From sequence record SRR31156797_886: a DNA stretch of 63,708 nucleotides; one strand, written 5' to 3'. A program made the translations under genes and the position numbers. Under the pieces are notes generated by a model. The model was not told the DNA's origin and did no database searches. It was given only the letters and a program-made list of their open reading frames with translations. Below are positions 46,655-62,639 of the stretch, in pieces (positions within the stretch are counted from its first letter, which is position 1; every line of letters starts with the position of its first letter).

Positions 46655-47170
46655 ATGGCGCTCATAAAATCTGTAAAAGGTATTTCTCCTCAAATTGGCA
46701 AAAATGTCTTTCTGGCCGATAACGCGACTGTTGTTGGCGATGTTATCATGGGTGATGATTGCAGTGTTTGGTTCAATGCCGTTGTTCGCGGAGACGTTCA
46801 TTATATCCGCATTGGCCAGCAGGTAAATATCCAGGATGGGGCAATCATCCATTGTACCTATAAAAAAGCACCGGTAAATATTGGGGATAACGTTTCCATA
46901 GCCCACAATGCAATCGTTCATGGTTGCACAATCCACGATAATGTGCTAATTGGGATGGGAGCCATCATCATGGATCATGCTGTGATCGAAAGCAATTCGA
47001 TCATTGCTGCCGGAGCATTGGTTTCAAAGAACACGGTTGTTAAATCAGGCTCAGTATATGCCGGTGTTCCGGCCAAAAAAATCAAAGACATCGACAAGGA
47101 ATTGATGGAAGGCGAAATACAACGTATTGCCGAAAGTTACACCATGTATGCCGGATGGTATAAAGACTGA
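46655..47170 (+). CDS. Gamma carbonic anhydrase family protein
   Basis: Hexapeptide repeats, VRGDV, NIQDG..IH, IAHNAIVHGC, AGVPAK. Confidence 0.92.
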   Translation: MALIKSVKGISPQIGKNVFLADNATVVGDVIMGDDCSVWFNAVVRGDVHYIRIGQQVNIQDGAIIHCTYKKAPVNIGDNVSIAHNAIVHGCTIHDNVLIGMGAIIMDHAVIESNSIIAAGALVSKNTVVKSGSVYAGVPAKKIKDIDKELMEGEIQRIAESYTMYAGWYKD

Positions 47171-47297
47171 TTTTTTCTGCTTTATACCAGGTTATTAAAT
47201 AATTGTTAATTGATAATCAATCAGCAATAAAAGGATTGCCCCTGTTGTTTTTTGATTGATTTTTGTAGTATCTAATGAATTAAAGAAAGGATTAATA

Positions 47298-48323
47298 ATG
47301 AAGAAAATTCGATTAGGCCTGATGGGGTTTGGCGAGATGAATCGTCACCTGTATCGCCTTTGCCTTGAGGACGACCTCGTTGAGGTAGTTGCGATTAGCG
47401 ACATAGGCCGCCCCGAAATTTTAGTTTATCTGCTCAACGTAGAATCTAAACGTGCAAAAGATGATGTTGATGCAAAACTTGAAGGCCATTACCTGCACTC
47501 AAAAAATGGTAAAGCACGATTTGTAACCGGAACCACCCCGGCAGATGTGCCATGGGATGCATTTGATGTTGATGTAGTAGTTGACGGTACCGGTAAATAT
47601 CGCACAAGGGAAGAGATGTCACAGCACCTCGAAGGAGGAGCCAAGCGTGTGATCTTAACTTCGCTTCCTGAAAATGAACTCGACCGTATCGTCATCAAAG
47701 GTGTGAATCATCACCATATGAAAAAATCGGACCGGTTGATCTCAGCAGGTTCATCAACTACCAATGCAACGGCGATAATGCTAAAAATTTTAGACGAAGC
47801 CTTTGGTGTTGATTATTCAATGCTAACCACTGTCCACTCATATACGGCTGATCAGCCATTGCGTGATACTGCAGGAACAGATTTCAGAAGAAGCCGTTCT
47901 GCAGCTGAAAACATCATCCCTAACGAAACTCCAACACCACGTTGGCTTCCGCAAATCATGCCTGAGTTTAAAGGAAGAATTGAAGGTACTGCACTAAATG
48001 TACCGATCCCTGCCGGATCGTTGCTCGACCTGACAGTAGTACTGAAAAACGGTGATGTATCGGTTAAAGATGTTGACGACGCAGTTGAGAAAGCAGCAAA
48101 GAAAATCCCCGGTATCCTCGAAGTAACGGAAGATCCAATTGTTTCGGTTGACGTTGTTGGAAACCGCCACTCAGTGATTTTCGATAAGCAGGCAACCATG
48201 CGCTCAAAAGGTAAAATGCTGAAGGTACTCATCTGGTACCACAACACCCTTGCAATGGCTTCAAGAATTAAAGACCTCATTGTGGAATATCAAAAACTTA
48301 ACGAGGAAGGAGGTTCGAAATGA
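47298..48323 (+). CDS. GAPDH-fold protein lacking catalytic residues (pseudo-enzyme)
   Basis: Full-length GAPDH fold but GFGEMNR, SAGSSTTN (Cys to Ser), NETPTP, LNVP, WYHNT. Start at M15 (47298). Confidence 0.88.
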   Translation: MKKIRLGLMGFGEMNRHLYRLCLEDDLVEVVAISDIGRPEILVYLLNVESKRAKDDVDAKLEGHYLHSKNGKARFVTGTTPADVPWDAFDVDVVVDGTGKYRTREEMSQHLEGGAKRVILTSLPENELDRIVIKGVNHHHMKKSDRLISAGSSTTNATAIMLKILDEAFGVDYSMLTTVHSYTADQPLRDTAGTDFRRSRSAAENIIPNETPTPRWLPQIMPEFKGRIEGTALNVPIPAGSLLDLTVVLKNGDVSVKDVDDAVEKAAKKIPGILEVTEDPIVSVDVVGNRHSVIFDKQATMRSKGKMLKVLIWYHNTLAMASRIKDLIVEYQKLNEEGGSK

Positions 48324-49324
48324 GAGTAGCAATTAACGGATTCGGACGAATAGGAAGGTCGGTATTCAGAATTTTGAATGCCCGTAAAGATATTGACGTA
48401 GTAGCTATCAACGACCTTTTTGACAACAAAGTACTGGCCTATCTGCTGAAATATGATACCGTAATGAGCGGATTTGGTCAATCTGTTTCTATCAAAGGCG
48501 ACCACCTGGTTACACCGAACGAAAAGGTGAAAATGCTTACTATAAAAGATCCTGCTCAATATCCATGGAAAGAATTAAAAGTGGATGTTGTGGTTGAATC
48601 TACAGGTGTTTTCCGCAGCAGAGAAGCACTCATGCCGCACATTAAAGCCGGTGCCAAAAGGGTTATCCTTACCGTACCCGCCAAAGATGAGATTGATGCA
48701 ACAGTGGTTGTTGGTGTTAATGATGAAGTTCTAAAACCAGAGCATCAGATTATTTCAAATGCAAGTTGTACTACCAACTGCCTTGCGCCAATGGCCAAGG
48801 TGCTTAATGATGCATTTGGCATTGTTGAGGGTTTGATGACCACAACACACGCCTATACAAACGACCAGCGTCTTGCTGACGTACCTCACAAAGACTGGCG
48901 TCGTGGACGTGCAGCAGCTGAAAACATTATTCCAACCACTACCGGTGCTGCCCGCGCGGTTGGTAAGGTTATTCCGGAATTGGATGGAAAACTCGACGGA
49001 ATGGCATCTCGTGTGCCAGTCCCGGATGGTTCAGTGGTTGACCTTTTCATTGAGGTAGCTAAAAATGTTACGGTTGCTGATGTAAATGCAGCGGTAAGGC
49101 TTGCAGCTTCTACACCAAAAATGAAAAACATTTTAAATTACAGTGAAGACAAGCTTGTTTCAAGCGATATCGTTGGTAATTCTTACTCATCCATTTATGA
49201 TGCCGAATATACCAAGGTTGTTGGTGGACGTTATGTGAAAACACTGAATTGGTACGACAATGAATGGGGTTATTCAAACCGTGTTGTCGACCTGATTTCT
49301 ATGATCAGTGAATTTGAGAAATAG
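48320..49324 (+). CDS. gap: Type I glyceraldehyde-3-phosphate dehydrogenase (paralogue 3, catalytically intact)
   Basis: INGFGRIGR, SNASCTTNCLAP, HAYT, TTTGAA, RVP, WYDNEWGYS; ATGA overlap with the upstream gene. Confidence 0.95.
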   Translation: MRVAINGFGRIGRSVFRILNARKDIDVVAINDLFDNKVLAYLLKYDTVMSGFGQSVSIKGDHLVTPNEKVKMLTIKDPAQYPWKELKVDVVVESTGVFRSREALMPHIKAGAKRVILTVPAKDEIDATVVVGVNDEVLKPEHQIISNASCTTNCLAPMAKVLNDAFGIVEGLMTTTHAYTNDQRLADVPHKDWRRGRAAAENIIPTTTGAARAVGKVIPELDGKLDGMASRVPVPDGSVVDLFIEVAKNVTVADVNAAVRLAASTPKMKNILNYSEDKLVSSDIVGNSYSSIYDAEYTKVVGGRYVKTLNWYDNEWGYSNRVVDLISMISEFEK

Positions 49325-49353
49325 GGCGAAATCCAATACATCTTTTTAAAAAT

Positions 49354-49379
49354 AAGGGCGGGATTTCCGCCCTTTTTTT
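49354..49379 (+). terminator. Intrinsic terminator of the gap-like/gap operon
   Basis: AAGGGCGG-GATTT-CCGCCCTT followed by a T-run. Confidence 0.8.
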
Positions 49380-49423
49380 GTGCCCGAAAAACACGAAGGA
49401 AGACCATACCGAAAAATGGGGAT

Positions 49424-49452
49424 AAAAAAAGTCCCGGATTAATACCGGGACT
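49424..49452 (-). terminator. Second minus-strand terminator-like hairpin
   Basis: A7, GTCCCGG-ATTAATA-CCGGGAC. Confidence 0.6.
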
Positions 49453-49592
49453 GCTTGTAATCCTCCTTCATAAACGTTAGCTGAATAACAAAGGAAATAA
49501 AAAATCTTCTGTCTGCCCAGTGATTAAGCATTTTTAACCAAATTTTACCTGCGCATTATCACTGAAAAAAAGAGCAGAATTTATCAGTTCAT

Positions 49593-49628
49593 AAAAAAAA
49601 GCCCCGGCGAAAATTCGCCGGGGCTTTT
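49593..49628 (-). terminator. Intrinsic terminator of the giant T9SS cargo gene
   Basis: A8, GCCCCGGCGAA/TTCGCCGGGGC, T4. Confidence 0.85.
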
Positions 49629-49649
49629 ATGTGGGAATAACAATTAAGT

Positions 49650-52600
49650 TTATCTAATTACAAGTCGCTTAACAGCTGTGCTTCCTTTGCTTTCAAACTT
49701 AACAAAGTAAACACCCGGCTGTAAGTTGCTTACATCAATTTGTGATTCTTGCTCTGACATTTCATGAGTCATCACAACGCTACCTGATGCATTTGTAAAT
49801 GTAACATCAACCTGTGCATTAACAGGATAGAAAATGCTTACAACATCAGTGGCAGGATTCGGGAATATCTTGATCATATCGCTTGTGGCAACACCACCAA
49901 TACCTGTTGATGATTCCTTAAAGCTTGTGATCTTCGACAATCCATTGTTTGCATAGCGTCCATCAAAGTTTGGCATCGACATGTCGTACCTGGCAACGAT
50001 GTCTTCTTCAACACCATTGTAAGCAACCAGATTAATGGCTTCACCCAAAGTAGCACCGTCTTTCCAACCTGTGGCTGATTCGTCGCCGTAAACGGTCAAC
50101 AGATAGTTATCAGCTTTCTCGCGAACATCAGCATAACCAACACACATACCGCTGGCATCGAATGCACCGATAAACTGAGCATTGTCAAGTTCTTCAACAG
50201 CATCATTGGTAATGGAGATGAAGTGTACGCTTGCAGTACGTTCAAGCTCCCATGGGCTAACGTTGGTCACATATTCAACATCATTTGAACCGGCCTTCAA
50301 CTCACAATCAACATACTCAGGATAAGTAATATCAAATGAATTGAAGAAGTTACCGAGATAGCCAAATCCGGGCTTGAGTTCTGTAAGTGTGTACAGTCCG
50401 CCGTCCGGCCAGTAAATACGTGCTGTCTGGAGTTCAAAGATGATCAGAATGTCTTCATCATTGAAGTCACCTGGTAATGGATAGTCAACATTAGTCAGTA
50501 CCGGGAAGATGTTTGGTCCAACATCAAGTGTAATGGTTTGGTTTGCTGTATTTTCACCAGCAAGCAACCATGAACCATCAACATTGCTCTTAATCTTATA
50601 ACCATACTGTGTATTCCAGTCACCAAGATTGTTAACTTCTTCAGATGGCCAGAAGATTGAACCTTCGTCATTCAGCATAATAACCAGGTTATTTGCTGGG
50701 ACGATATAATCTTCAAGTGTGTAAAGGTCAGGATCAGTAGCTTCAATATAGGATGAAATGTATGACCATCCCTGTTTCATTTCAAGTAGCTGACCGTTGA
50801 GCTTGATATCAGTTACTGCATCAATTTCTGATTCGAGGAACTGTGTATCAGTAGCACGTGCTTCAATTGTGTTGAGGCAAGGATCAAGCTGAACTTCAAT
50901 TGACCAGTTCTCTGTACCTGTAGCCAATTGCCAAGCACCGCCGTTTACCCGCACTTCAACGAAGCTAACAAATCCGTCAAAGTCGGAGGCTGTACCTTCA
51001 ACAAGGATTGGGCTATAGTTGAAGAATGTGCCATCAACTGGTGATGTGATTTCAACAACCGGAGGAATACCTTCAATTGTCAACACCATATTATGCATAT
51101 CATTTCCGCATGGATCAACACCAACTGCAGTTAATGTAAGCAATACTTCACCATCGATGATATCCTGCATACCAGGGGTATAAGTAGGCATCAACGCAGT
51201 GTTATCGTCAAATGCACCATCTCCACTGGTTGACCAAAGCAGACCACTGTAATTGGTAGCAGCAGCTTCTGAGAGTGTGTATGTTTCATCTGATTGGATT
51301 GTTGCATCGTTACCGGCAAATGCTGTTGCCAAAGGCTGTACAAACAATGTCATACAATCTTCATCAGCTGTTGAACAAGGATCAACCGGCTCAGCAGTTA
51401 AACAAAGTGTAATTGTATTGCCAAGATCTCCTGCAACTGGCAGGTAGCTTGTATTCACAACTGTTTCATCGGCAAATGAACCTAATCCATCTGCTGTTTC
51501 CCAAAGTGTTGATGTAGTAAATTCTGCGGTTGCATCATCAAGTGAATAAACCTCACCTTCACAAACAGAAGCATCGGCTCCAGCATAAGCAACCGGTGCA
51601 GGCTGGATGTAGAGTGAAAGGTTATCATTTGCTATGGCAAGACATGGTGAATTGGGCTGTGCTACCAGGAAGATAATCACGGTGTTTCCAACATCTGCAG
51701 GATCAACCAGATAAGTTGGGTTCATAGCAGTCGGATCATCAAAATCACCTTGTCCGTTGGATGACCAGAACAATGCTGAGTAATTTTCGGCTGTGGCATC
51801 AGCAAGCGGGAAGTCTTCACCTTCACAAATTGTTGCGTCTTCACCTGCATAAGCAGTTGGTGAAGCAACTATCTCAATCTGGAATGCGTAAGTATCGAGT
51901 GTCGCCTGACTAGTAACACATCCGTTGGCATCAGTTAAACTTACAATAGTAAGGTCGTAAGTACCCGGGAGGAAGTCTGCAGCATTGAATGGGAAGCATT
52001 CGCTGGTTCCGGTCATGATGTCGCCAAACGGACCGCTTGGACCTGTTACAGCCCATTCAACTGTCCAGTCAGGTAATCCTTCAACACCTGTTAAACAAAT
52101 CTCAAACGATTCATTATCACAGAACATGTTCAACGCTTCAGGAGCATCACCATCAAGTGTAACCTCCAAAGTTGGTTCAGGAAGTATCTCAATCTGGAAG
52201 GCATATGAGTCGAGTGTTGTCTGGCTTGTGGTACATCCATCAGCATCGGTCAAACTTACAATGGTCAGATCATAAGTTCCCGGCAGGTAATCAGCTGCAC
52301 TGAACGGGAAGCAATCACTGGTGCCTGTCATCACATCGCCAAATGTTCCACTCGGGCCTGAAACTGCCCATTCAACGGTCCATTCGGGTGTTCCTTCAAC
52401 ACCTGTCAAACAAATCTCAAAGTCATCATCCCAGCAATATTCATTTACTGCTAGCGGTGTTGAACCATCAAGTGTAACTGCAAGTGTTGGTTCCGGGTTA
52501 ATTGTAACTGTGAAGTAGTAATAGTTATTAAGCACAGTTACAGGTATAGCGCAACCATTGGCATCTACAACTGAGGTTACCTGAACATTATAGGTATCCG

Positions 52601-55600
52601 GTCCTGAAGTGTAGTCAGCCAGATTAAAGTCATCACCAAAGTTCACATCATCGAAATCAATATCAGATCCACCGTTAATGGAAATTGAGATATCGAACGG
52701 GGGTGTACCTACTGATGTTTGTCCACCTTGTTCTTCAACAAGTGCAAGCATTATTTCAGAAACATCGTAGCAATACTCAAACTCTCCACCAGGTAACAAT
52801 GGATCATCGTCAATGGTAAAGAATGGATTTGGCTGAGGATAAACAACAAACGTAGCATTGTACATTGATACGTCAAGAGGTGAACATCCGTTAGCATCTG
52901 TTATCGAGGTAATCTGGACATTATAAGTACCGGCAGATAATACATCGCTAAATAGTACATTATTTACCAAATCAATATCTGAGGCACTGCCGGGATCACC
53001 ATTAACTTCCCATTCAATTGTGAATGGTGCGGTTCCGAGAAGAATCTCATTTAATGTAACTTCGATATTCTCGTCGAAGCAATAATACAAGGTTTCTCCT
53101 TCATAGAATGGATCCCCATTTGCAGCAAAAATCAGTGCTGGCGGAGGAGCCACAACAACTGTAGCATTGTATGGTGTGTAATCTGCTGGTTCACATCCAT
53201 TGGCATCAACAATTGATGTAATTTGAACCGGATATGTTCCGGCTGCCAATGGGCCGCTAAACAGATTATCGCCAACATTAACACCGTCAGCATTATCAGG
53301 ATCACCGTCAACGGTCCAGGCGATATCAAATGGGCCTTCTCCGGAAAGTACTTCATCAAGAGAAATGGTGACAGTTTCACCTTCGCAATATTCCAGTGTA
53401 GCGCCTTCATAGAACTGCGTGCCGTTGGCAGCAAAAATCAATGCGGGCTCTGCATGAATGTTAACTGTGAAATAGTAGTAGTTAAGTAATACCTGTTCAG
53501 GAATAGCACATCCTTTGTCATCCACTACTGAAGTTACCTGGATGTTGTATTCACCCGGAGCGGCTGTTGTGTAATCCAACAGATCGATTTCATCACCAAA
53601 ATTAACATCCACAAAATCGAATGGTGTTCCGCCATTGACCGAGAACGAGATATCGAATGGTGCAGTTCCTACGCTGGTTTGTCCGCCTTGTTCTTCAACC
53701 AGAGCAAGCATAACTTCTGTTACATCGTAGCAGTAATTATACTCCCCACCTGGTAACAATGGATCATCATCTATGGTGAAGAATGGGTTAGGCTGAGGAT
53801 TAACAACAATGTTAACTGAGTAAACTGAAATATCAGTCGGTGAACAATCATTGGCATCCTCAAGCAATGTGAGACTAATGGTGTACTCACCGGCTGGGTA
53901 CGTATTGCTGAAGAGCTCACCGTCAAGTTCTACACCATAAGCACTTCCACTTTCAACAAAATCAACTCCTTCGTAAACATCCCATTCAAAATCGAATGGT
54001 GCAGTACCAGAAAGGATTTCATCGAGTGTGATAGTAACAGTTTCATCGAAGCAATATGTCAAAGTAGCATCCTGATAAAACTGGCCATCTTCGTTGGCAA
54101 AAATAACTGCCGGTTCTTCGTTAAAGAAGAGAACCATATCATCAGCATCCTGGCCAGTACATGGTGATTCAGCAAATGCCGTAAGCGTAAGTGTTACGTT
54201 ACCGTCATTAAGGTCATCAAGGCTTGGTGTATAAGTTGCTGTGAGCGAATTCTCATCATCGAATGTACCGTCACCACTTGTTGACCAAATGTAGGAGGTT
54301 GAGTATTCAACACTTCCGTTAAGCTGGTATAGTTCATTTGCACAAGTAGTGGCATCATCACCTGCGTTTGCAATTGGCAGATACTGAACATCAAGTGTCA
54401 TACAGTCGGGCTCAGAATTTGTAACACAAGGATCCTGAGGCAGTGCAACAAGGCAAAGTTCAACAGAACCGTTAGTTACATCATCGGTACCAGGATAATA
54501 CATAGGATTCAGTGCATTTGCATCGCTGAATGAACCATCACCGTCAGTTGACCATAGCTGTCCGTCAGCATTTTCGACTGAAGCACCTGAAATCTGATAA
54601 GTACCATCTTCACAAACAACACCATCGTCACCTGCATCGGCAATTGGCAGAGGCTTAAATGTAAGGATCATACAATCAGGATCTGAATTTATTGTACATG
54701 GATCCTGAGCGAGGGCAACCAGGCAAAGTTCAACAGATCCGTTTGCTATATCATCCGTACCTGGATAATATGTTGGATTAAGAGCGGTATCGTCATCAAA
54801 TGTACCATCACCGCCAGTTGACCATGACTGGCCATCGTTATTTTCTACTGAAGCATTCACTAAAGTATAAGTGTCATTTTCACAAATTTCAGCATCAGCT
54901 CCTGCATCAGCACTTGGTGACAACTGGATAAAGATTACAATCTCATCTTCAATTGACTGACCAACACATGGTGCTATTGGAGATGCTGAAATGGTGAGTG
55001 TTACTGAAAGATTAGCCTGATCACCAATTCCCGGATTGTAAGTTGGGTTAACACTGGTATCATCATCAAATGTACCATCACCACTGGTAGTCCAGAGAAT
55101 TGCCTGGTAATCTTCAGCTGTGGCATCAGAAAGCATAAATGGTTCGAGGCCACAACTTGTATCATCATCACCTGCAAAAACAGTAGGCTGTCTTTGGATT
55201 GTGAGTGTCATGCAATCTGCTTCGGAATTTACAAAGCAAGGTTCAATTGGTTCGGCAACAAGGCACAATTCAACAGAACCATCGGCTGCATCCTGGGTGC
55301 CAGGCGTATATTCAGCATTTACATCAGTAGCCTCGTCAAATGTACCATCACCACCGGTTGTCCACATTTGTCCTGAGGCATTCTCAACACTTGCAGTGGA
55401 AAGCACATAAGTACCGTCTTCGCAAATCTCAGCATCGTCACCTGCGTTGGCAACTGGTGCATGACCAAATGTGATGGCAACGGTGATATCATCAGATATA
55501 CATCCGTTTACATCTTTAATGGTACCTGTGAAATTATAGAGTCCTTGTGGGTAGTTACCAGGAATAGTTAATGGTAACTCTTCGCTTGGAATATTCTGAT

Positions 55601-58600
55601 ATTGGAGTCCGTCAATCAAAACATAATCAGCACCGTCATAAACAAGGTAGAATATAGGTTGATTACCGTTGATAATCTCCCACATGATTCCCTGCCATCC
55701 ACCTGCGCCACTAACCACGCCACGATCGGCCCAGTAAGCGAAGAAATCTGCGGGTACTGTTGCTGTATGATAGAATTCGTTGAAGAATCCTGTTTCAAGG
55801 GTTTGTGTAGCTGTAAGTGCATCTACATCAAGCCAGTAATGAGTACCTTCTTCTCCGTTGAGGCACATACCAAATCCATCAACCAAATCTCCTGAAAGCG
55901 GATCAAATGATGGGGGTAGTTCAGCAAGTGAACCCTGCAAGGTAAGATCTGTAAGTTCAGGAAGTGGGTTGATGGTCAGTGTCATGAAATCATCAACTGC
56001 GGTTGTACAAGGATCGATTGGTTGGGCTGTTAAGGTTAGCTCAACGTCACCTGTTTCACCAACACCTGCATTATAAGTTGCATCCAGTTGGTCTCCATTA
56101 TCAAATGATCCTGTTCCACCTGACCATGCAAGACTTGAATAGTCCATTGCGCTGGCATCTGTAAATGTATAACTTCCATTCTCACATATAGTGGCATCTG
56201 AACCGGCATCGACCGTAGGTATTACCTGAATCGTTAAGGCAATATCATCAGATACAGGGGCTGTACAAGGATCTTCCGGCTGAGCGGTTAGTGTAAGTGT
56301 TACCTCAGGCACATCGGAGGATACCGGATAATAAGTAGCATCTTCCATTGTAGGATCATCAAAAGTACCATCTCCTGAAGTTGTCCACAGAAGTGTGGAA
56401 TAGTCGGCTGCAGTTGCATCAAGTGCGTAGCTTCCATCTTCACAGGCAGTTCCGTCAGCACCAGCATCAACTGTTGGCTCGAGCTGAATAAAGATAACCA
56501 GCTGATCTGTAACAGGGGCAACATCACATGGAGCAATAGGTGAAACCTGAACCTGGAGAGTTACTGAGAGATTTGACTCATCAAATGGTCCGGGATAGTA
56601 GGTTGGGTTAAGTTCAGAATTACTACTGAAGGTACCATCACCACTTGTAGTCCATAATACTGACCCGTCTTGGTAATTTTCAGCTGTTGCATCAACTAGT
56701 GGATATGGATCAATACCACAGGAGGTATCATCATCACCAGCAAATACGGTAGGCAGCTTTTGGATGGTTAGAGTCATGCATTCCTGTAACTCAAGTACAC
56801 AAACATCAATTGGATACACATCAATACACAGTTCTACTGAACCAGCATCGATATCGTCCTGACTTGGTGTGTAAGTTGGTGCTTCTGCAGAAGGATCATC
56901 AAATGTTCCTGTTCCTGAAGTTGACCACTCAATTGAGCTATAATTATCAGCTGTAGAAGAAACCGGAATCGTGTATGTATCATCTTCACAAATTGTTGCA
57001 TCATCAAGGTCTACAACAACCGGATTCAGTTCTATTGTAATCACGATGTCATCTTTAGCAGCAACATCGCAAGGCATAATAGGTGTAGCTGTAATGGTGA
57101 GTGTTACCTCGCCGTTAGTTTTATCAACATCACCAGGGAAGTATTGTGGATTCAAAGTAAATGCGTTGCTCCAGGTACCATCACCTGAAGTTGTCCATAA
57201 TATGGAAGCATTATTTGCAACAGTTGCATCATTCAGGAATATGGCATCTTCACAGAATGTGTCATCTTCACCGGCATATGATTCTGGCTCAACCTGGAAG
57301 TAGAGCACCATTTCATCGGTATCTTCAACATCACATGGGCTACATGGCTGAGCAATTAATGTAAGTGAGACTTGTCCTGCAATTAAATCATTTGTGCCTG
57401 GTGTGTAAACAGCGGTTAATGATGAGGGAACATCAAATGTACCATCACCTGCTGTTTCCCAAAGACTTCCACATGCATTATCTACAGAACCATTCATGGT
57501 GTTGGTTCCTGTTTCGCAAATGGTTTTGTCTGCGCCAGCATCCGCAACCGGAAGCTCCTGAATCATGAAGTAAGCATTGTCGGAAGCTTCAAGCGTACAT
57601 GGGTCGATTGGGTTTGCAGTAAATGTTAAGGTAACTGATCCATTGAGAATATCACCAGCTCCCGGATAATAAGTGGTAGTTGCGGCAGTAGCATCTTCGA
57701 ATGTACCATCGCCATCGGTGGTCCATGCTGTTGAGCTCTCATTTGTAGCAACACCTGTTACTTCATTACCAGTTTCGCAAAGTGTTCCATCACCGCCAGC
57801 ATCAGCAGTAGGTGAACCCTGGATAGTTAGTATCATACAATCTTCCGGTATGGCAGTACAAGGATCTATGGAGGTTGCCTCAATGCAAAGCTGTACAGAA
57901 CCATTTTCAATATCATCAGTTCCAGGATAGTATGTTGGGTTCATGGATGTAACATCATCAAACGAACCGTCGCCATCGCTGGTCCATGTAATGGTTTCGT
58001 AATTTTCCGCTGTTGCATCTTCCAATATAAAACTATCTGAGTCGCAAATTGTAGCATCTGGACCTGCATCAACAACAGCAGCCTCAATAACTACGAGATT
58101 CATATCGTCCTGATCTGAAATTACACATGGATGAATTGGATTGGCAACTAATGTAAGTGTAACAATACCTGCTCCAACATCGCTGGATCCAGGATAATAG
58201 GTTGCCAAAAGTTCCATGGAATCATCAAAAGTACCATCACCGTTTGTTGTCCACTCCAGGTTACTGTTGTTGTAAACAGCAACTGCACCATCAAGGAATG
58301 TATAACCTGTTTCGCAGGCGGTATCATCGTCACCGGCATCTGCAATTGGCAGAGGCTGAACATTCAATACGATGTCATCAGAAGTTGACTGCGTACATGG
58401 ATCGATTGCATAGGCAACTATTGTTAACGTTACCGTTCCGGCGGTTGCATCTCCAGTACCGGGATAATATGTTGGATTCAGTGTCATCGCATCATCAAAT
58501 GTACCATCGCCGTCTGTCGACCACATAACACCAAAATAGTTGTAGGCTTCAGCCTCAAGCAGGAAGAATCCGCTTTCGCAAACGTCAGCATCAGCACCTG

Positions 58601-61600
58601 CATCAACTTCCGGTAATAGCTGGAAGGTAAGTACCATGTCATCAGTTACATTATCTACGCAAGGAGTACATGGGTAACCTGTTAGGGTTAAAGTTACTGA
58701 TCCACTGGCAATATCACCAGCTGAAGGTGTATAAACAGCTGTTAATGAGTTGGCATCATCAAATGAACCTGTGCCATCGGTGGTCCATCCATAAGAAGGA
58801 GTACCACATGCAACATCAACGCTGCCGCTCAGCTGGTAATTGGTGTCTTCGCAAATTGTAGCATCTGCACCTGCATCAACTTCAGGAAGATCCTGGATGA
58901 AAATGGTTACAACATCATCAATGTACGATGTACAGGGTTCAAGCGGTTCGGCGGATAATTTCAATTCAGTATATCCCAATCCAATGGCATTGTTCCCTGG
59001 TGAAAAGGTTGGATTCAATGCTGAAGCATCGTCGAATGTTCCATCACCAGCCAGGTTATCAGTCCATAAGAGGCTTTTGTATTCTGATGCGGTTGCATCA
59101 TCCAAAACAACGGATCCGTTTTCACATACGGTTTTGTCAGTACCTGCATTAACCAGCGGTAACAGCTGAACAGTGATTGTACAATTATCATCATCAAAAG
59201 TTGTACATGGATCGACTCCCGTAACTGTAACTGTTATATTAATTACACCTTGTGCTGCATCAAGTTGGGATAAGGTATATGAAGGATAATCTATGGTGTT
59301 ATCGTCCCAAATATTTGTGCCGTTTCCGGAATACCAGATTACGGATCCTTTTTCGGCATATTCCACGAGTGTGTTATCAAAATGAATGACATCTCCCTCG
59401 CAGGCATCAATATTATCAACAAGAATGTCTACTGTTGGGCTGGCCTGAATGGTTAACGTCATTGTATCTGTATCTTCAACATCACATGGGTCACATGGTA
59501 CTGCTGTCAAGGTAAGTACCACTGATCCGGCAGCAATGTCATCCGTTCCCGGAGTATAAGAAGCAGTAAGTGAACCGGCATCATCAAAATCACCGTCACC
59601 GGCGGTTGACCATTCCTGTCCACATGCATTAGAAACACTTCCATAAAGTTCCCATGAGTCATCATCACAAATTGTAGCGTCGTCACCTGCTTCAGCAGTT
59701 GGAGGCTCCTGGAAAGTAATTACAATCTGGTCGAAATCGCCGGTTGTACAAGGGTCACAGGCGGAAACCTGAACTGAGAGTGTGACTGATCCGGCAATGT
59801 AATCCAGGAGTCCGGGTGTGTATTTAGGATCTTCAATTGTTTCATCATCAAAAGTTCCAAAACCACTTACCGGGGCCCAAAGAATTGTACAACTATTCTC
59901 GATAGTCGCATCCAATTGAACATCGTTACCTACACATGAAGTGATATCGTCACCAGCATCAGCCGTTGGATTAAGCTGGAAGGTCAGTACCATATCATCA
60001 GACTGGCTGGCAGTACATGGTGTACAAGCATATCCTGTAAGTGTAAGTGTAACTGAACCGGCATCTACATCATTTTGTGTTGGATAATAATAGGTAGCAT
60101 CGAATGTACCATCACCACTTGTTGACCATTCGTAGTCAGGTGAGCCACAAGTGTTTTCAAGAGATCCGTCAAGCATAAAGTCTTGATCTTCACAAACAGT
60201 GGCGTCAATACCTGCATCCACTACAGGAAGGTCCTGAATATAGATTGTAACCTGATCTTCCACAACTGTTACACAAGGCTCTAAGGGCTGAGCTTCGAGC
60301 TTCAATGTTGTATACCCAAGATCTATTGCATTTTGCCCTGGTGTAAACTCAGGGTTTAGTAAGGTTGCATCATCAAATGTACCATCTGTTGCCACAATAT
60401 CTGTCCATAGCAGACTTTCTGCTTCAAGCGCTGTTGCATCGCTAAGCATTGCACTGCCATCCTCGCATATAGTTTGATCTGCTCCGGCATCAATCACAGG
60501 CAGTTGCTGAACGCTTATTGTACACTGGTCATCATCTAAAACAGAACAAGGATCCATTGCAGTAGCCTGCACAGTAATGTTAACAAATCCCTGAATAGCA
60601 TCACTCTGTGATAAAGTATAGGTTGGATAGTCGAGTGTATTATCACTCCAATCACCACTTCCGTTTACGGCTACCCAGATTGCAGCATTATGATTGGCAT
60701 AATCAACAAGGTTTGTAAAATCAAATACGGTTTGTTCACAAACCAGCGTATCGTCAAACAGGATATCTACGGATGGATTTAACTGAATGTAAAGTGTTAC
60801 ATCATCAGTATCTTCAACGGTGCAAGGATCACAAGGTTCTGCTGTAAGGGTCAACGAAGCAAAACCATTATCAATATCCGTTGCACTTGGGGTGTATTCT
60901 GCATTCAATAAAGTGTTATCGTCAAATGTACCACCTGTTAATGAAGACCATTCTTGCCCGCAGGCATCTGTAACACCACCATTCAGTGTGGCTGTTTCAT
61001 CTTCACAAATGGTTTGGTCATCACCTGCATCAGCAACCGGAGCCCTTTGAATATAAATTGTAACCCGGTCTGTCTGGCCTGTTGAACATGGTGAACAAGC
61101 AGCAGCCAGTACTTCCAATGTTACGGATCCATTTTGAATTTCATTGAATCCAAATGTATACTCAGGATCTTCAATATTTGGATCATCAAATGAACCACTG
61201 CCATCAATCTTTGTCCAGGTGATGGCACATTCATTTTCAATTGTTGCATCAAGCGAAACAGTTACATCTTCGCAAACTGTTTGGTCAATACCTGCATCAA
61301 CAGTCGGCAATGGAGCAACTTCAATATCAAATTCACAGAAATTAGTACAACTTGTTGAAGGATCAGTATAAGTGTACTTAATCGTATATGTTCCAACGCC
61401 TACACTCGGGTCAAAACTTCCGGCGCTAACGCCTGTTCCCTCGTATGTACCCCCTGTTGGCAATCCACCGGTAAGTGTTACCGGATCTGCATCTTCACAA
61501 ACATCGAATGAACCTGGGCATGTTACTATTGGCAAAGCATTAACTGTAATATCAAAGGTGCATTCTCCGTCGCATCCGGTAACCGGATCAACATATAAAT

Positions 61601-62639
61601 AAGTGATGGTGTGCTGGCCTTCACCAGCTGCAGCTGGATCAAAAGTTCCACCAGAAACGCCATCACCACTGTATGTTCCACCTACTGGAGTTGCTCCTGA
61701 AAGTGAAAATGGATCATCATCAATACAAACCGGAAAATCATCAGGGCATTGTACATCGGGGAGTGGGTTAATGGTCAGGATCATATCATCTGAATCCGGA
61801 TCACAATATTGATTTTCAGCAGTAAGTGTAAGTGTTACTGTTTCATTTATAATATCGTTTGCTCCTGGCGTATAAATTGCATCAAGTGCTGTATCATCAT
61901 CAAATGTACCATCACCGTCGGTAGCCCAGGAAGATGAAGTAGCATTTGTTGTTGAACCACTTAGTTGATAGGTGTCACCTTCACAAATTTCATCATCTGA
62001 ACCGGCATCTGCGTCAATTTCATCGCTGAAAGTTAAAATAAAGCTGTCGTTTTGAATAGCAACACAGGGTGATGAGGGCTGCACAACAAGGTTAATTGTA
62101 ACCTCTCCGTTGCTTAAGTCAAAAGCACCCGGAATGTAGGTAGGATTTAAAACTGTGGAACTGGGCTGAAATACTCCATCAAACCCACCATTCCATGAAA
62201 AAAAGTTGTACGACCCGCCATTAATTTCGGCATCTGCAATGACATAATTATTTCCGCCGCAAATTGTTGCATCTGGTCCGGCATATGGTTCCGGAAGCTG
62301 GGCAAGCGTAAGCGTCATGTCGTCTACAGCATCCGACTCACCGGTCATTGAAGCAGTGAGGGTAAGCACAACTGAATTACCGTCAGCAGCACCCGGATAA
62401 TAAATGGGATTCAAAACAGTGTTTTCACTGAATGTTCCGTTCCCGGATGTTTCCCATAATAAGCTCTCATATCCGGAGGCTGTAGCATCTGAAAGCTCAT
62501 AGGTCTGGTTTTCGCAAATGGTCGCATCCGAACCAGCATCAGCAGTTGGCTGTGCAAAAGCTTCGGCAGCGTTACCCATCATAAGTATTACCAACGAAAA
62601 GATGTAATACTTTTTAAGTAAATCGTACACTTTTTTCAT
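49650..62639 (-). CDS. Giant (4329 aa) acidic, Cys-rich repeat surface protein with T9SS type A C-terminal sorting domain
   Basis: Signal peptide ending AEAFA; about 31 copies of an ~88-aa module (AG.D.TIC...W.T.GDGTFDD...Y.PG..D...G.V.L.L.A.P..PC...D...L.IQ..P), plus about 10 related Ig-like modules and a Big-like domain; CTD IFPNPATD...LQPGVYFVK...KRLVIR. Confidence 0.9.
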   Translation of the reverse strand: MKKVYDLLKKYYIFSLVILMMGNAAEAFAQPTADAGSDATICENQTYELSDATASGYESLLWETSGNGTFSENTVLNPIYYPGAADGNSVVLTLTASMTGESDAVDDMTLTLAQLPEPYAGPDATICGGNNYVIADAEINGGSYNFFSWNGGFDGVFQPSSTVLNPTYIPGAFDLSNGEVTINLVVQPSSPCVAIQNDSFILTFSDEIDADAGSDDEICEGDTYQLSGSTTNATSSSWATDGDGTFDDDTALDAIYTPGANDIINETVTLTLTAENQYCDPDSDDMILTINPLPDVQCPDDFPVCIDDDPFSLSGATPVGGTYSGDGVSGGTFDPAAAGEGQHTITYLYVDPVTGCDGECTFDITVNALPIVTCPGSFDVCEDADPVTLTGGLPTGGTYEGTGVSAGSFDPSVGVGTYTIKYTYTDPSTSCTNFCEFDIEVAPLPTVDAGIDQTVCEDVTVSLDATIENECAITWTKIDGSGSFDDPNIEDPEYTFGFNEIQNGSVTLEVLAAACSPCSTGQTDRVTIYIQRAPVADAGDDQTICEDETATLNGGVTDACGQEWSSLTGGTFDDNTLLNAEYTPSATDIDNGFASLTLTAEPCDPCTVEDTDDVTLYIQLNPSVDILFDDTLVCEQTVFDFTNLVDYANHNAAIWVAVNGSGDWSDNTLDYPTYTLSQSDAIQGFVNITVQATAMDPCSVLDDDQCTISVQQLPVIDAGADQTICEDGSAMLSDATALEAESLLWTDIVATDGTFDDATLLNPEFTPGQNAIDLGYTTLKLEAQPLEPCVTVVEDQVTIYIQDLPVVDAGIDATVCEDQDFMLDGSLENTCGSPDYEWSTSGDGTFDATYYYPTQNDVDAGSVTLTLTGYACTPCTASQSDDMVLTFQLNPTADAGDDITSCVGNDVQLDATIENSCTILWAPVSGFGTFDDETIEDPKYTPGLLDYIAGSVTLSVQVSACDPCTTGDFDQIVITFQEPPTAEAGDDATICDDDSWELYGSVSNACGQEWSTAGDGDFDDAGSLTASYTPGTDDIAAGSVVLTLTAVPCDPCDVEDTDTMTLTIQASPTVDILVDNIDACEGDVIHFDNTLVEYAEKGSVIWYSGNGTNIWDDNTIDYPSYTLSQLDAAQGVINITVTVTGVDPCTTFDDDNCTITVQLLPLVNAGTDKTVCENGSVVLDDATASEYKSLLWTDNLAGDGTFDDASALNPTFSPGNNAIGLGYTELKLSAEPLEPCTSYIDDVVTIFIQDLPEVDAGADATICEDTNYQLSGSVDVACGTPSYGWTTDGTGSFDDANSLTAVYTPSAGDIASGSVTLTLTGYPCTPCVDNVTDDMVLTFQLLPEVDAGADADVCESGFFLLEAEAYNYFGVMWSTDGDGTFDDAMTLNPTYYPGTGDATAGTVTLTIVAYAIDPCTQSTSDDIVLNVQPLPIADAGDDDTACETGYTFLDGAVAVYNNSNLEWTTNGDGTFDDSMELLATYYPGSSDVGAGIVTLTLVANPIHPCVISDQDDMNLVVIEAAVVDAGPDATICDSDSFILEDATAENYETITWTSDGDGSFDDVTSMNPTYYPGTDDIENGSVQLCIEATSIDPCTAIPEDCMILTIQGSPTADAGGDGTLCETGNEVTGVATNESSTAWTTDGDGTFEDATAATTTYYPGAGDILNGSVTLTFTANPIDPCTLEASDNAYFMIQELPVADAGADKTICETGTNTMNGSVDNACGSLWETAGDGTFDVPSSLTAVYTPGTNDLIAGQVSLTLIAQPCSPCDVEDTDEMVLYFQVEPESYAGEDDTFCEDAIFLNDATVANNASILWTTSGDGTWSNAFTLNPQYFPGDVDKTNGEVTLTITATPIMPCDVAAKDDIVITIELNPVVVDLDDATICEDDTYTIPVSSTADNYSSIEWSTSGTGTFDDPSAEAPTYTPSQDDIDAGSVELCIDVYPIDVCVLELQECMTLTIQKLPTVFAGDDDTSCGIDPYPLVDATAENYQDGSVLWTTSGDGTFSSNSELNPTYYPGPFDESNLSVTLQVQVSPIAPCDVAPVTDQLVIFIQLEPTVDAGADGTACEDGSYALDATAADYSTLLWTTSGDGTFDDPTMEDATYYPVSSDVPEVTLTLTAQPEDPCTAPVSDDIALTIQVIPTVDAGSDATICENGSYTFTDASAMDYSSLAWSGGTGSFDNGDQLDATYNAGVGETGDVELTLTAQPIDPCTTAVDDFMTLTINPLPELTDLTLQGSLAELPPSFDPLSGDLVDGFGMCLNGEEGTHYWLDVDALTATQTLETGFFNEFYHTATVPADFFAYWADRGVVSGAGGWQGIMWEIINGNQPIFYLVYDGADYVLIDGLQYQNIPSEELPLTIPGNYPQGLYNFTGTIKDVNGCISDDITVAITFGHAPVANAGDDAEICEDGTYVLSTASVENASGQMWTTGGDGTFDEATDVNAEYTPGTQDAADGSVELCLVAEPIEPCFVNSEADCMTLTIQRQPTVFAGDDDTSCGLEPFMLSDATAEDYQAILWTTSGDGTFDDDTSVNPTYNPGIGDQANLSVTLTISASPIAPCVGQSIEDEIVIFIQLSPSADAGADAEICENDTYTLVNASVENNDGQSWSTGGDGTFDDDTALNPTYYPGTDDIANGSVELCLVALAQDPCTINSDPDCMILTFKPLPIADAGDDGVVCEDGTYQISGASVENADGQLWSTDGDGSFSDANALNPMYYPGTDDVTNGSVELCLVALPQDPCVTNSEPDCMTLDVQYLPIANAGDDATTCANELYQLNGSVEYSTSYIWSTSGDGTFDDENSLTATYTPSLDDLNDGNVTLTLTAFAESPCTGQDADDMVLFFNEEPAVIFANEDGQFYQDATLTYCFDETVTITLDEILSGTAPFDFEWDVYEGVDFVESGSAYGVELDGELFSNTYPAGEYTISLTLLEDANDCSPTDISVYSVNIVVNPQPNPFFTIDDDPLLPGGEYNYCYDVTEVMLALVEEQGGQTSVGTAPFDISFSVNGGTPFDFVDVNFGDEIDLLDYTTAAPGEYNIQVTSVVDDKGCAIPEQVLLNYYYFTVNIHAEPALIFAANGTQFYEGATLEYCEGETVTISLDEVLSGEGPFDIAWTVDGDPDNADGVNVGDNLFSGPLAAGTYPVQITSIVDANGCEPADYTPYNATVVVAPPPALIFAANGDPFYEGETLYYCFDENIEVTLNEILLGTAPFTIEWEVNGDPGSASDIDLVNNVLFSDVLSAGTYNVQITSITDANGCSPLDVSMYNATFVVYPQPNPFFTIDDDPLLPGGEFEYCYDVSEIMLALVEEQGGQTSVGTPPFDISISINGGSDIDFDDVNFGDDFNLADYTSGPDTYNVQVTSVVDANGCAIPVTVLNNYYYFTVTINPEPTLAVTLDGSTPLAVNEYCWDDDFEICLTGVEGTPEWTVEWAVSGPSGTFGDVMTGTSDCFPFSAADYLPGTYDLTIVSLTDADGCTTSQTTLDSYAFQIEILPEPTLEVTLDGDAPEALNMFCDNESFEICLTGVEGLPDWTVEWAVTGPSGPFGDIMTGTSECFPFNAADFLPGTYDLTIVSLTDANGCVTSQATLDTYAFQIEIVASPTAYAGEDATICEGEDFPLADATAENYSALFWSSNGQGDFDDPTAMNPTYLVDPADVGNTVIIFLVAQPNSPCLAIANDNLSLYIQPAPVAYAGADASVCEGEVYSLDDATAEFTTSTLWETADGLGSFADETVVNTSYLPVAGDLGNTITLCLTAEPVDPCSTADEDCMTLFVQPLATAFAGNDATIQSDETYTLSEAAATNYSGLLWSTSGDGAFDDNTALMPTYTPGMQDIIDGEVLLTLTAVGVDPCGNDMHNMVLTIEGIPPVVEITSPVDGTFFNYSPILVEGTASDFDGFVSFVEVRVNGGAWQLATGTENWSIEVQLDPCLNTIEARATDTQFLESEIDAVTDIKLNGQLLEMKQGWSYISSYIEATDPDLYTLEDYIVPANNLVIMLNDEGSIFWPSEEVNNLGDWNTQYGYKIKSNVDGSWLLAGENTANQTITLDVGPNIFPVLTNVDYPLPGDFNDEDILIIFELQTARIYWPDGGLYTLTELKPGFGYLGNFFNSFDITYPEYVDCELKAGSNDVEYVTNVSPWELERTASVHFISITNDAVEELDNAQFIGAFDASGMCVGYADVREKADNYLLTVYGDESATGWKDGATLGEAINLVAYNGVEEDIVARYDMSMPNFDGRYANNGLSKITSFKESSTGIGGVATSDMIKIFPNPATDVVSIFYPVNAQVDVTFTNASGSVVMTHEMSEQESQIDVSNLQPGVYFVKFESKGSTAVKRLVIR

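Follow-up and report, generated by a model that had tools for sequence, protein, structure and literature searches.

Why would a bacterium keep, directly in front of an active glyceraldehyde-3-phosphate dehydrogenase (GAPDH) gene, a second gene for the same fold that has lost the catalytic cysteine? The question is raised by a gene pair on the plus strand of sequence record SRR31156797_886, a stretch of 63,708 nucleotides that we refer to as the window. The upstream gene (47298..48323, ATG start, 341 amino acids) codes for a Cys-less GAPDH-fold protein, referred to as the dead copy. The downstream gene (48320..49324, ATG start, 334 amino acids) codes for an active type I GAPDH of a dedicated lineage, referred to as the partner. 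The stop codon of the first gene and the start codon of the second overlap in the ATGA at 48320..48323, sharing four bases. Few enzymes have been studied as thoroughly as GAPDH, which outside chloroplasts is regarded as a homotetramer. We propose that the dead copy is, on balance, probably a non-catalytic subunit of a heteromeric GAPDH, with binding between the two proteins predicted by modelling.

The dead copy is built as a GAPDH throughout its length. It matches both Pfam domains above their cut-offs (Gp_dh_N, 60.5 bits; Gp_dh_C, 152.2 bits), and both domains are also present in the partner, to which it is 41% identical (133 of 328 aligned residues, E 3e-83). In contrast, the NCBIfam equivalog of type I GAPDH (TIGR01534, EC 1.2.1.12), with a cut-off of 367.2 bits, separates the two proteins: the dead copy stays below it at 272.6 bits, whereas the partner passes at 435.4 bits. 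The erythrose-4-phosphate dehydrogenase model TIGR01532 does not reach its cut-off (223.5 bits against 530.55). An AlphaFold2 model of the dead protein has a mean pLDDT of 78.8 and a pTM of 0.82, with the S-loop (residues 181–210) below a pLDDT of 50 in this monomer model. The top PDB matches of the model in Foldseek are all GAPDHs, with TM scores of 0.82–0.85. A sequence-profile search of the PDB turned up no structure from the dead family; its highest-scoring match was the ordinary GAPDH 2ep7 (279 bits). The ESM Atlas returned generic GAPDH clusters only. Compared with type I GAPDH (GapA), the upstream protein shares the two-domain fold, the length, the S-loop, the active-site His, the SxTTN start of a helix and the dimer-forming sheet. 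It differs in lacking the Cys nucleophile, the Arg of RVP and the WYDNE motif, and in the Bacteroidales form Arg10 and Gly12 of the NAD loop are missing too. The downstream partner belongs fully to the type.

A preliminary description of this DNA, made from the window alone, had read the upstream frame as a full-length GAPDH fold with every catalytic determinant that could be checked changed, and the fold is borne out by the domains and the model above. All the substitutions that it listed are present: Cys to Ser, GFGRIGR to GFGEMNR, TTTGAA to NETPTP, RVP to NVP and WYDNE to WYHNT. The S-loop and the GSLLDL and DPIVSVDVVG segments are retained, as it had said. At the catalytic Cys position, identified by alignment with the partner and the family, the window carries the codon TCA (47754..47756, plus strand), which codes for Ser153.

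Residues were counted in 75 complete related pairs. The nucleophile column of the dead copies holds Ala in 59 and Ser in 16, with Cys in none of the 75, and Ser is confined to the subclade of the window. The preliminary description had proposed a search for S-S-T-T-N; the family state is Ala, so that search would miss most members. With Ala in the majority, the Ser of the window copy is no replacement nucleophile, and a Ser-based enzyme seems unlikely from the alignment. Among more distant Cys-less clades, this position is occupied by S, A, V, N, G or P.

Other catalytic positions are altered just as consistently. The substrate-phosphate Arg of RVP is N234 and the Asp of WYD is H315 in all 75 dead copies, and the Asn and Glu positions of WYDNE are likewise replaced, the residue after WYH being variable. 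In the NAD loop, the Arg position of GFGRIGR is E13 in 74 of 75, and the third Gly is most often Pro (31), Gly (25) or Asn (14). The altered loop, GFGE.xRH, is itself kept, with R16 in 75/75 and H17 in 73/75. The Gly of the Pi site becomes Pro in 61 of 75, and the NETP.P.W segment around it is conserved among dead copies. On the other hand, the Thr aligned with T208 of the partner is retained as T211 (Thr in 68, Ser in 7), and the Thr of HxYT is invariant, so the phosphate-site residues are not all lost, a correction to the preliminary description. The active-site His is kept as H180 in 75/75; Ser152, Thr154 and the S-loop arginines are invariant as well. The partners are canonical and invariant at all catalytic positions examined, with C150, H177, T180, T208, G209, R231 and N314 present in 75/75.

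Is the dead copy a member of a maintained family? A word-seeded search with it found 1701 proteins with E values of 1e-3 or better, of which the best 120 are 61–95% identical to the dead copy, compared with 41% for its own neighbour, and their organism names, where given, are Bacteroidota or Bacteroidales. When one genome per species was scanned, 298 stretches proved to code for a relative; the best 80, with 58–95% identity to the dead copy and all from metagenome-assembled genomes, were used as genome loci. The altered motifs are conserved across the aligned family, and the open reading frame is intact in all 81 family genes examined. The median ratio of nonsynonymous to synonymous substitution rates (dN/dS, NG86), taken from 57 usable close pairs among 127 examined, comes to 0.060 in the dead copy and 0.038 in the partner. 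The dead copy is thus under strong purifying selection and, given the size of the family and this ratio, is no decaying duplicate. Two of the loci are labelled Clostridia (L002) and Chlorobiota (L065); their genes lie within the Bacteroidales family (82% and 62% identity, respectively), and mis-binning or mislabelling is possible.

The dead gene is tied to one active gene. Of the 80 genome loci, 76 have an active gap as the next gene downstream in the same orientation, and the remaining four stop at a contig edge just after the dead gene, so that the position directly upstream of an active gap is found in 76/76 testable loci. With the window included, the 4-nt ATGA overlap occurs in 74 of 77 pairs; two pairs have a 1-base overlap and one is ambiguous. 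Within the last codons of the dead gene of the window lies GGAGG (48309..48313, plus strand), the core of a Shine-Dalgarno site that serves the partner. All 77 of 77 Bacteroidales pairs have such a core, GGAGG or AGGAG, 4–18 nt before the partner ATG, while the dead gene's own start has an AGGAG or GAGG core in 5/77, AGGA in 15/77 and none in 55/77. The dead protein ends in LNEEGGSK, and its Gly-Gly codons carry the Shine-Dalgarno site of the partner; the C-terminal Gly of the dead protein is invariant because this site is encoded there. At the level of the aligned genes, this shows selection on the nucleotides of the junction. The stop/start overlap together with the Shine-Dalgarno site suggests coupled translation of both genes. 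Shine-Dalgarno sites are rarely used in Bacteroidota, so a strong and conserved one is odd for this phylum and offers a handle on translational coupling there.

On the plus strand, the window scan found no terminator-like site between the dead gene and the partner gene, and an intrinsic-terminator-like hairpin (49354-49374) with a T-run follows the pair (49354..49381). The overlap and the single shared terminator reported earlier are both present. Contigs from RNA libraries (two libraries, two studies) run across the junction, aligned at 47492-48696 (X3 record 19), 47943-48483 (X3 record 21), 48214-48747 (X4 record 28) and 48285-48467 (X4 record 29); they derive from relatives roughly 85–95% identical. 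Such contigs demonstrate neither transcription nor a single transcript, the libraries may contain DNA, and we do not count them as support.

The dedication of the partner is also visible from co-occurrence. Among 201 genomes sampled from the order around one carrier, a dead-family gene is present in 19 (at least 375 bits and at least 52% identity; next best match 265 bits), and the partner lineage is present in the same 19 (at least 543 bits and at least 74% identity; next best 445 bits, 63%). Both genes are adjacent in 18 of the 19 carriers; in the 19th, each gene lies at a contig end. Adjacency, the ATGA overlap and co-occurrence all uphold the linkage and translational coupling to an active GAPDH that had been proposed earlier, the active gene belonging to one dedicated lineage. 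A second canonical gap (E 1e-90 or better) is found in 15/19 carriers, and four of the five carriers studied in detail have a second gap that is 45–50% identical to the partner. Since most carriers have this second gap, the pair is a module additional to the ordinary GAPDH in Bacteroidales. These five carriers also have a GAPDH-like gene of NF006139 type of about 480 amino acids (486 amino acids at L092 in genome G001; frames of 493–535 amino acids in G002–G004). In G005 (L090; C2:2079399-2079878), extra GAPDH-like matches are broken into pieces of 213 and 316 amino acids with an in-frame TAA, and may be pseudogenes or assembly errors.

How old is the pair? When 1.84 billion cluster representatives were searched with a profile, 12,290 matched. 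Among the best 150 of these, restricted to 200–520 amino acids, 28 of 146 aligned proteins are Cys-less, and several Cys-less matches keep GFGRIGR yet share the NVP and IIPN segment with the dead family. A metagenome scan with the Cys-less alignment then yielded 80 marine loci, 44–49% identical to the dead copy of the window. A Cys-bearing gap, 64–71% identical to the window partner, lies immediately downstream in 74 of these 80 loci, and the other six are cut by contig ends. The spacing of the marine pairs is −4 (35 loci), −1 (24), 0 (2), +1 (12) or +9 (1). The marine dead copies keep GFGRIGR in 78/80. Exact look-ups of ten marine partners located nine; three of these nine clusters bear NCBI names with Candidatus Marinimicrobia or Neomarinimicrobiota.

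In quick IQ-TREE maximum likelihood trees with SH-aLRT support only, the partners of both groups form one clade (SH-aLRT 98), with the second gaps falling elsewhere, and the dead copies of both groups form one clade as well (SH-aLRT 98). Each clade splits by phylum. The separate clades mean that the dead copy is no recent duplicate of its neighbour. Judged from these trees, the gene pair appears to be old and inherited or moved as a unit across two phyla; with midpoint rooting, the notion of an old lineage rests on clade structure and not on a rooted tree. These data bear on the alternative that the upstream gene is a decaying tandem gap duplicate without function. The loss of catalytic residues is all that speaks for it. 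Frames intact in 81 family genes, a median dN/dS of 0.06, more than 100 homologs at 61–95% identity, 298 species genomes with a relative and a pairing retained across two phyla speak against it; intact frames, low dN/dS and the tree clades refute it, and we give it practically no weight.

Further Cys-less clades (P0133–P0135, P0143, P0147, P0171, P0206 and P0244) keep GFGRIGR and have V, N, S, A, G or P at the nucleophile position. P0135 is named Planctomycetota, and the cluster of P0134 holds a 45-residue partial member named Actinomycetota. A metagenomic protein of 297 amino acids, P0127, is a chimera: residues 1 to about 130 match the C-terminal domain of the dead copy, and residues 130–297 match residues 76–243 of the partner with 75% identity. 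Either an error of assembly or recombination between the two paralogs would account for it. Also among the best profile matches, P0122 (2089 amino acids) contains four Cys-bearing GAPDH stretches and P0145 (1455 amino acids) contains two.

We modelled the dead copy and the partner as a two-chain complex, supplying each protein as a 23-row alignment. The model scores 0.68, compared with 0.00 for the best of three controls; the 0.68 mark is reached by 58 of 80 solved complexes and by 2 of 110 mismatched pairs. At least 99% of the contacts are shared among the three runs, and the pLDDT of the dead chain is 90 or higher. The modelled interface between the two proteins is the catalytic-domain sheet dimer.

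Conservation in the dead copy follows this interface, independently of the model score. Column entropy averages 0.47 over the 45 residues of the modelled interface, as opposed to 1.07 over the remaining catalytic domain (Mann-Whitney p 3e-5); for the S-loop the average is 0.39. Interface and remaining domain differ little in the partner (0.37 and 0.51, p 0.64), the whole domain being constrained. The constraint on the dead copy is therefore concentrated on the S-loop and the modelled dimer interface, in line with the interface retention that had been suggested for it. Comparing the partners of both phyla with 75 other Cys-type GAPDHs, we found nine residues specific to the partners, four of which fall within the 30-residue S-loop (Fisher p 0.005). 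The S-loops form the core of the GAPDH tetramer and line the NAD site of the neighbouring subunit. If so here, a dead subunit could tune the cofactor pocket of the active one.

At this point an enzymatic role can be weighed, in which the upstream protein works by Cys-independent chemistry on a related metabolite and forms a two-step couple with GAPDH. The invariance of His180, Ser152, Thr154 and the S-loop arginines would fit such an enzyme, as would a dN/dS that is enzyme-like in its lowness and the NAD loop kept in the marine clade. However, the nucleophile column reads Ala in 59 and Ser in 16 of 75, and S, A, V, N, G or P in the distant clades, so no residue there is essential. The Arg of RVP, the Asp of WYD and the Asn and Glu that follow it are replaced, as are Arg10 and Gly12 in Bacteroidales, and constraint is lowest in the catalytic domain away from the interface. 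We regard this role as improbable.

A stand-alone role is a stronger competitor, though we still hold it to be rather unlikely. The dead protein would then be a non-enzymatic regulator or sensor that forms its own oligomer and binds a nucleotide or metabolite in the remodelled cofactor or phosphate pocket; it would touch its GAPDH partner only transiently, or act on a different target such as RNA or another enzyme, without being a stable subunit. The remodelled NAD loop and the NETP.P.W segment are conserved, nucleotide binding may persist in the marine copies with their GFGRIGR (78/80), and linkage and co-inheritance fit any tight functional tie. Against this stand the conserved stop/start overlap and Shine-Dalgarno site, which suggest coupled translation, the strongest constraint lying on oligomerisation elements, and the partner-specific changes in the S-loop. 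The hetero-dimer model, which passes its controls, also argues against it, though likeness to solved structures may contribute to that pass.

We therefore return to the heteromeric subunit and the points that weigh against it. GAPDH homotetramers are already solved, so the pass of the two-chain model may come from likeness to them, and the model cannot separate a heteromer from two homotetramers. The partner-specific residues are not enriched at the modelled interface (2/9, p 0.34). Inter-protein mutual information with average product correction (APC), computed on 143 pairs (87 effective), places none of its 47 top pairs between interface and interface; the highest-ranking pairs join positions at which the two phyla differ. 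A Mann-Whitney shift of the interface pairs (p 1.5e-9) is not relied on, because the pairs are not independent. More weakly, a search of proteins of 598–2000 amino acids yielded no dead-active fusion with an E value of 1e-30 or better. Finally, the altered NAD loop is conserved and the marine loop is intact, hinting that the old cofactor pocket may bind something; with conserved forms of this loop, a ligand-binding regulator or another enzyme would also fit.

Taking the evidence on both sides, we propose the following mechanism for a heteromeric GAPDH. The dead GAPDH-fold subunit would be made together with its dedicated active GAPDH through the stop/start overlap and the internal Shine-Dalgarno site. 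The dead and active subunits would assemble as a mixed tetramer, most simply two plus two. In the manner of prozyme-type paralogs, the dead subunit may then change how active, cooperative or stable its active counterpart is, or how that counterpart handles its cofactor. We also raise a wider idea, which we put forward tentatively and consider possible but not the likelier outcome: a whole bacterial GAPDH lineage, in Bacteroidales, SAR406/Marinimicrobia and probably further phyla, could be an obligate heterotetramer in which the dead subunit is a built-in allosteric module, for nucleotide sensing through its remodelled cofactor pocket or for hard-wired half-of-the-sites behaviour.

Several known systems offer likenesses. 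Chloroplast A2B2 GAPDH is a tetramer of two paralogous subunits, GapA and GapB, with regulation contributed by one of them. Both subunits are catalytic, and GapB ends in a regulatory extension that contains two Cys. The likeness lies in two paralogous GAPDH-fold proteins, the heteromer here being only a modelled one. Unlike GapB, the upstream protein is dead and has no extension (341 versus 334 amino acids), and, unlike GapA and GapB, both proteins here are encoded by one overlapping bacterial gene pair. CP12 is a dedicated regulator of GAPDH, a small disordered protein; the dead copy is a paralog with the GAPDH fold, which CP12 is not. The PDB titles returned by Foldseek include 'cyanobacterial GAPDH with full-length CP12'.

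Outside the GAPDH family, the deoxyhypusine synthase of trypanosomatids has a dead paralog that selection retains beside an active one, and their heterotetramer is reported to raise activity 3000-fold (PMC3663545). The likeness to such prozyme-type paralogs is a dead paralog under purifying selection together with an active paralog (here dN/dS 0.06 and co-occurrence 19/19). The difference is that the prozyme belongs to another enzyme family and is eukaryotic, whereas the GAPDH partner here has a complete catalytic set and the assembly is a model prediction. In GMPPA/GMPPB, a ligand-binding non-catalytic paralog is reported to regulate the catalytic one (PMC11228364); this family is unrelated to GAPDH. 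A full-text literature search, with subscription journals outside its coverage, found no description of a dead GAPDH subunit in bacteria, nor did passages of PMC12041015 give one.

Upstream of the pair, we notice candidate control signals. An inverted repeat ATTAA-N7-TTAAT lies on the plus strand at 47194..47210, about 90–105 nt 5' of the dead-gene start. In most of the 160-nt upstream regions of the window and L001–L015, read by eye and without statistics, this repeat is followed by GCAATAAA, and in the window-like subclade the two elements together span about 70–105 nt 5' of the start. The repeat block may be a regulator site of the two-gene operon. Directly 5' of the dead-gene ATG is the block AAAGAAAGGA (47282..47291, plus strand), which is kept in the window-like subclade. 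An Rfam scan of 46900-49700 gave no family at gathering score. On the minus strand, three further terminator-like hairpins (49374-49354, 49452-49430 and 49628-49597) sit between convergent genes.

In the loci compared, the genes around the pair vary from one subclade to another and offer no clue to its function. In the window they code for a hexapeptide-repeat protein, LptE and a sigma-54 activator; in relatives they include LepA, RelA/SpoT, a type IX secretion system protein and an extracytoplasmic function sigma factor. Convergent with the gap pair of the window is an open reading frame of 4329 amino acids (49650-62639, minus strand) with many repeated Cys- and Thr-rich modules. It clusters with large downstream or upstream frames in 10 loci, and a CHU_C type IX secretion domain occurs in another of the downstream clusters (L060).

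Both genes of the pair are now annotated as plain 'type I GAPDH', an annotation that would need correcting. In Bacteroidales, the position of the module beside a second gap suggests a specialised role, in flux direction, cofactor use or stress, and not housekeeping glycolysis. If the proposed heteromer is true, an enzyme of central metabolism that textbooks present as a homotetramer would have an overlooked form with two kinds of subunit, and the pair would be a clean bacterial case of a pseudoenzyme partner. It would also mean a new principle of regulation or assembly in central carbon metabolism, in two phyla of which one is an abundant ocean clade, the marine SAR406.

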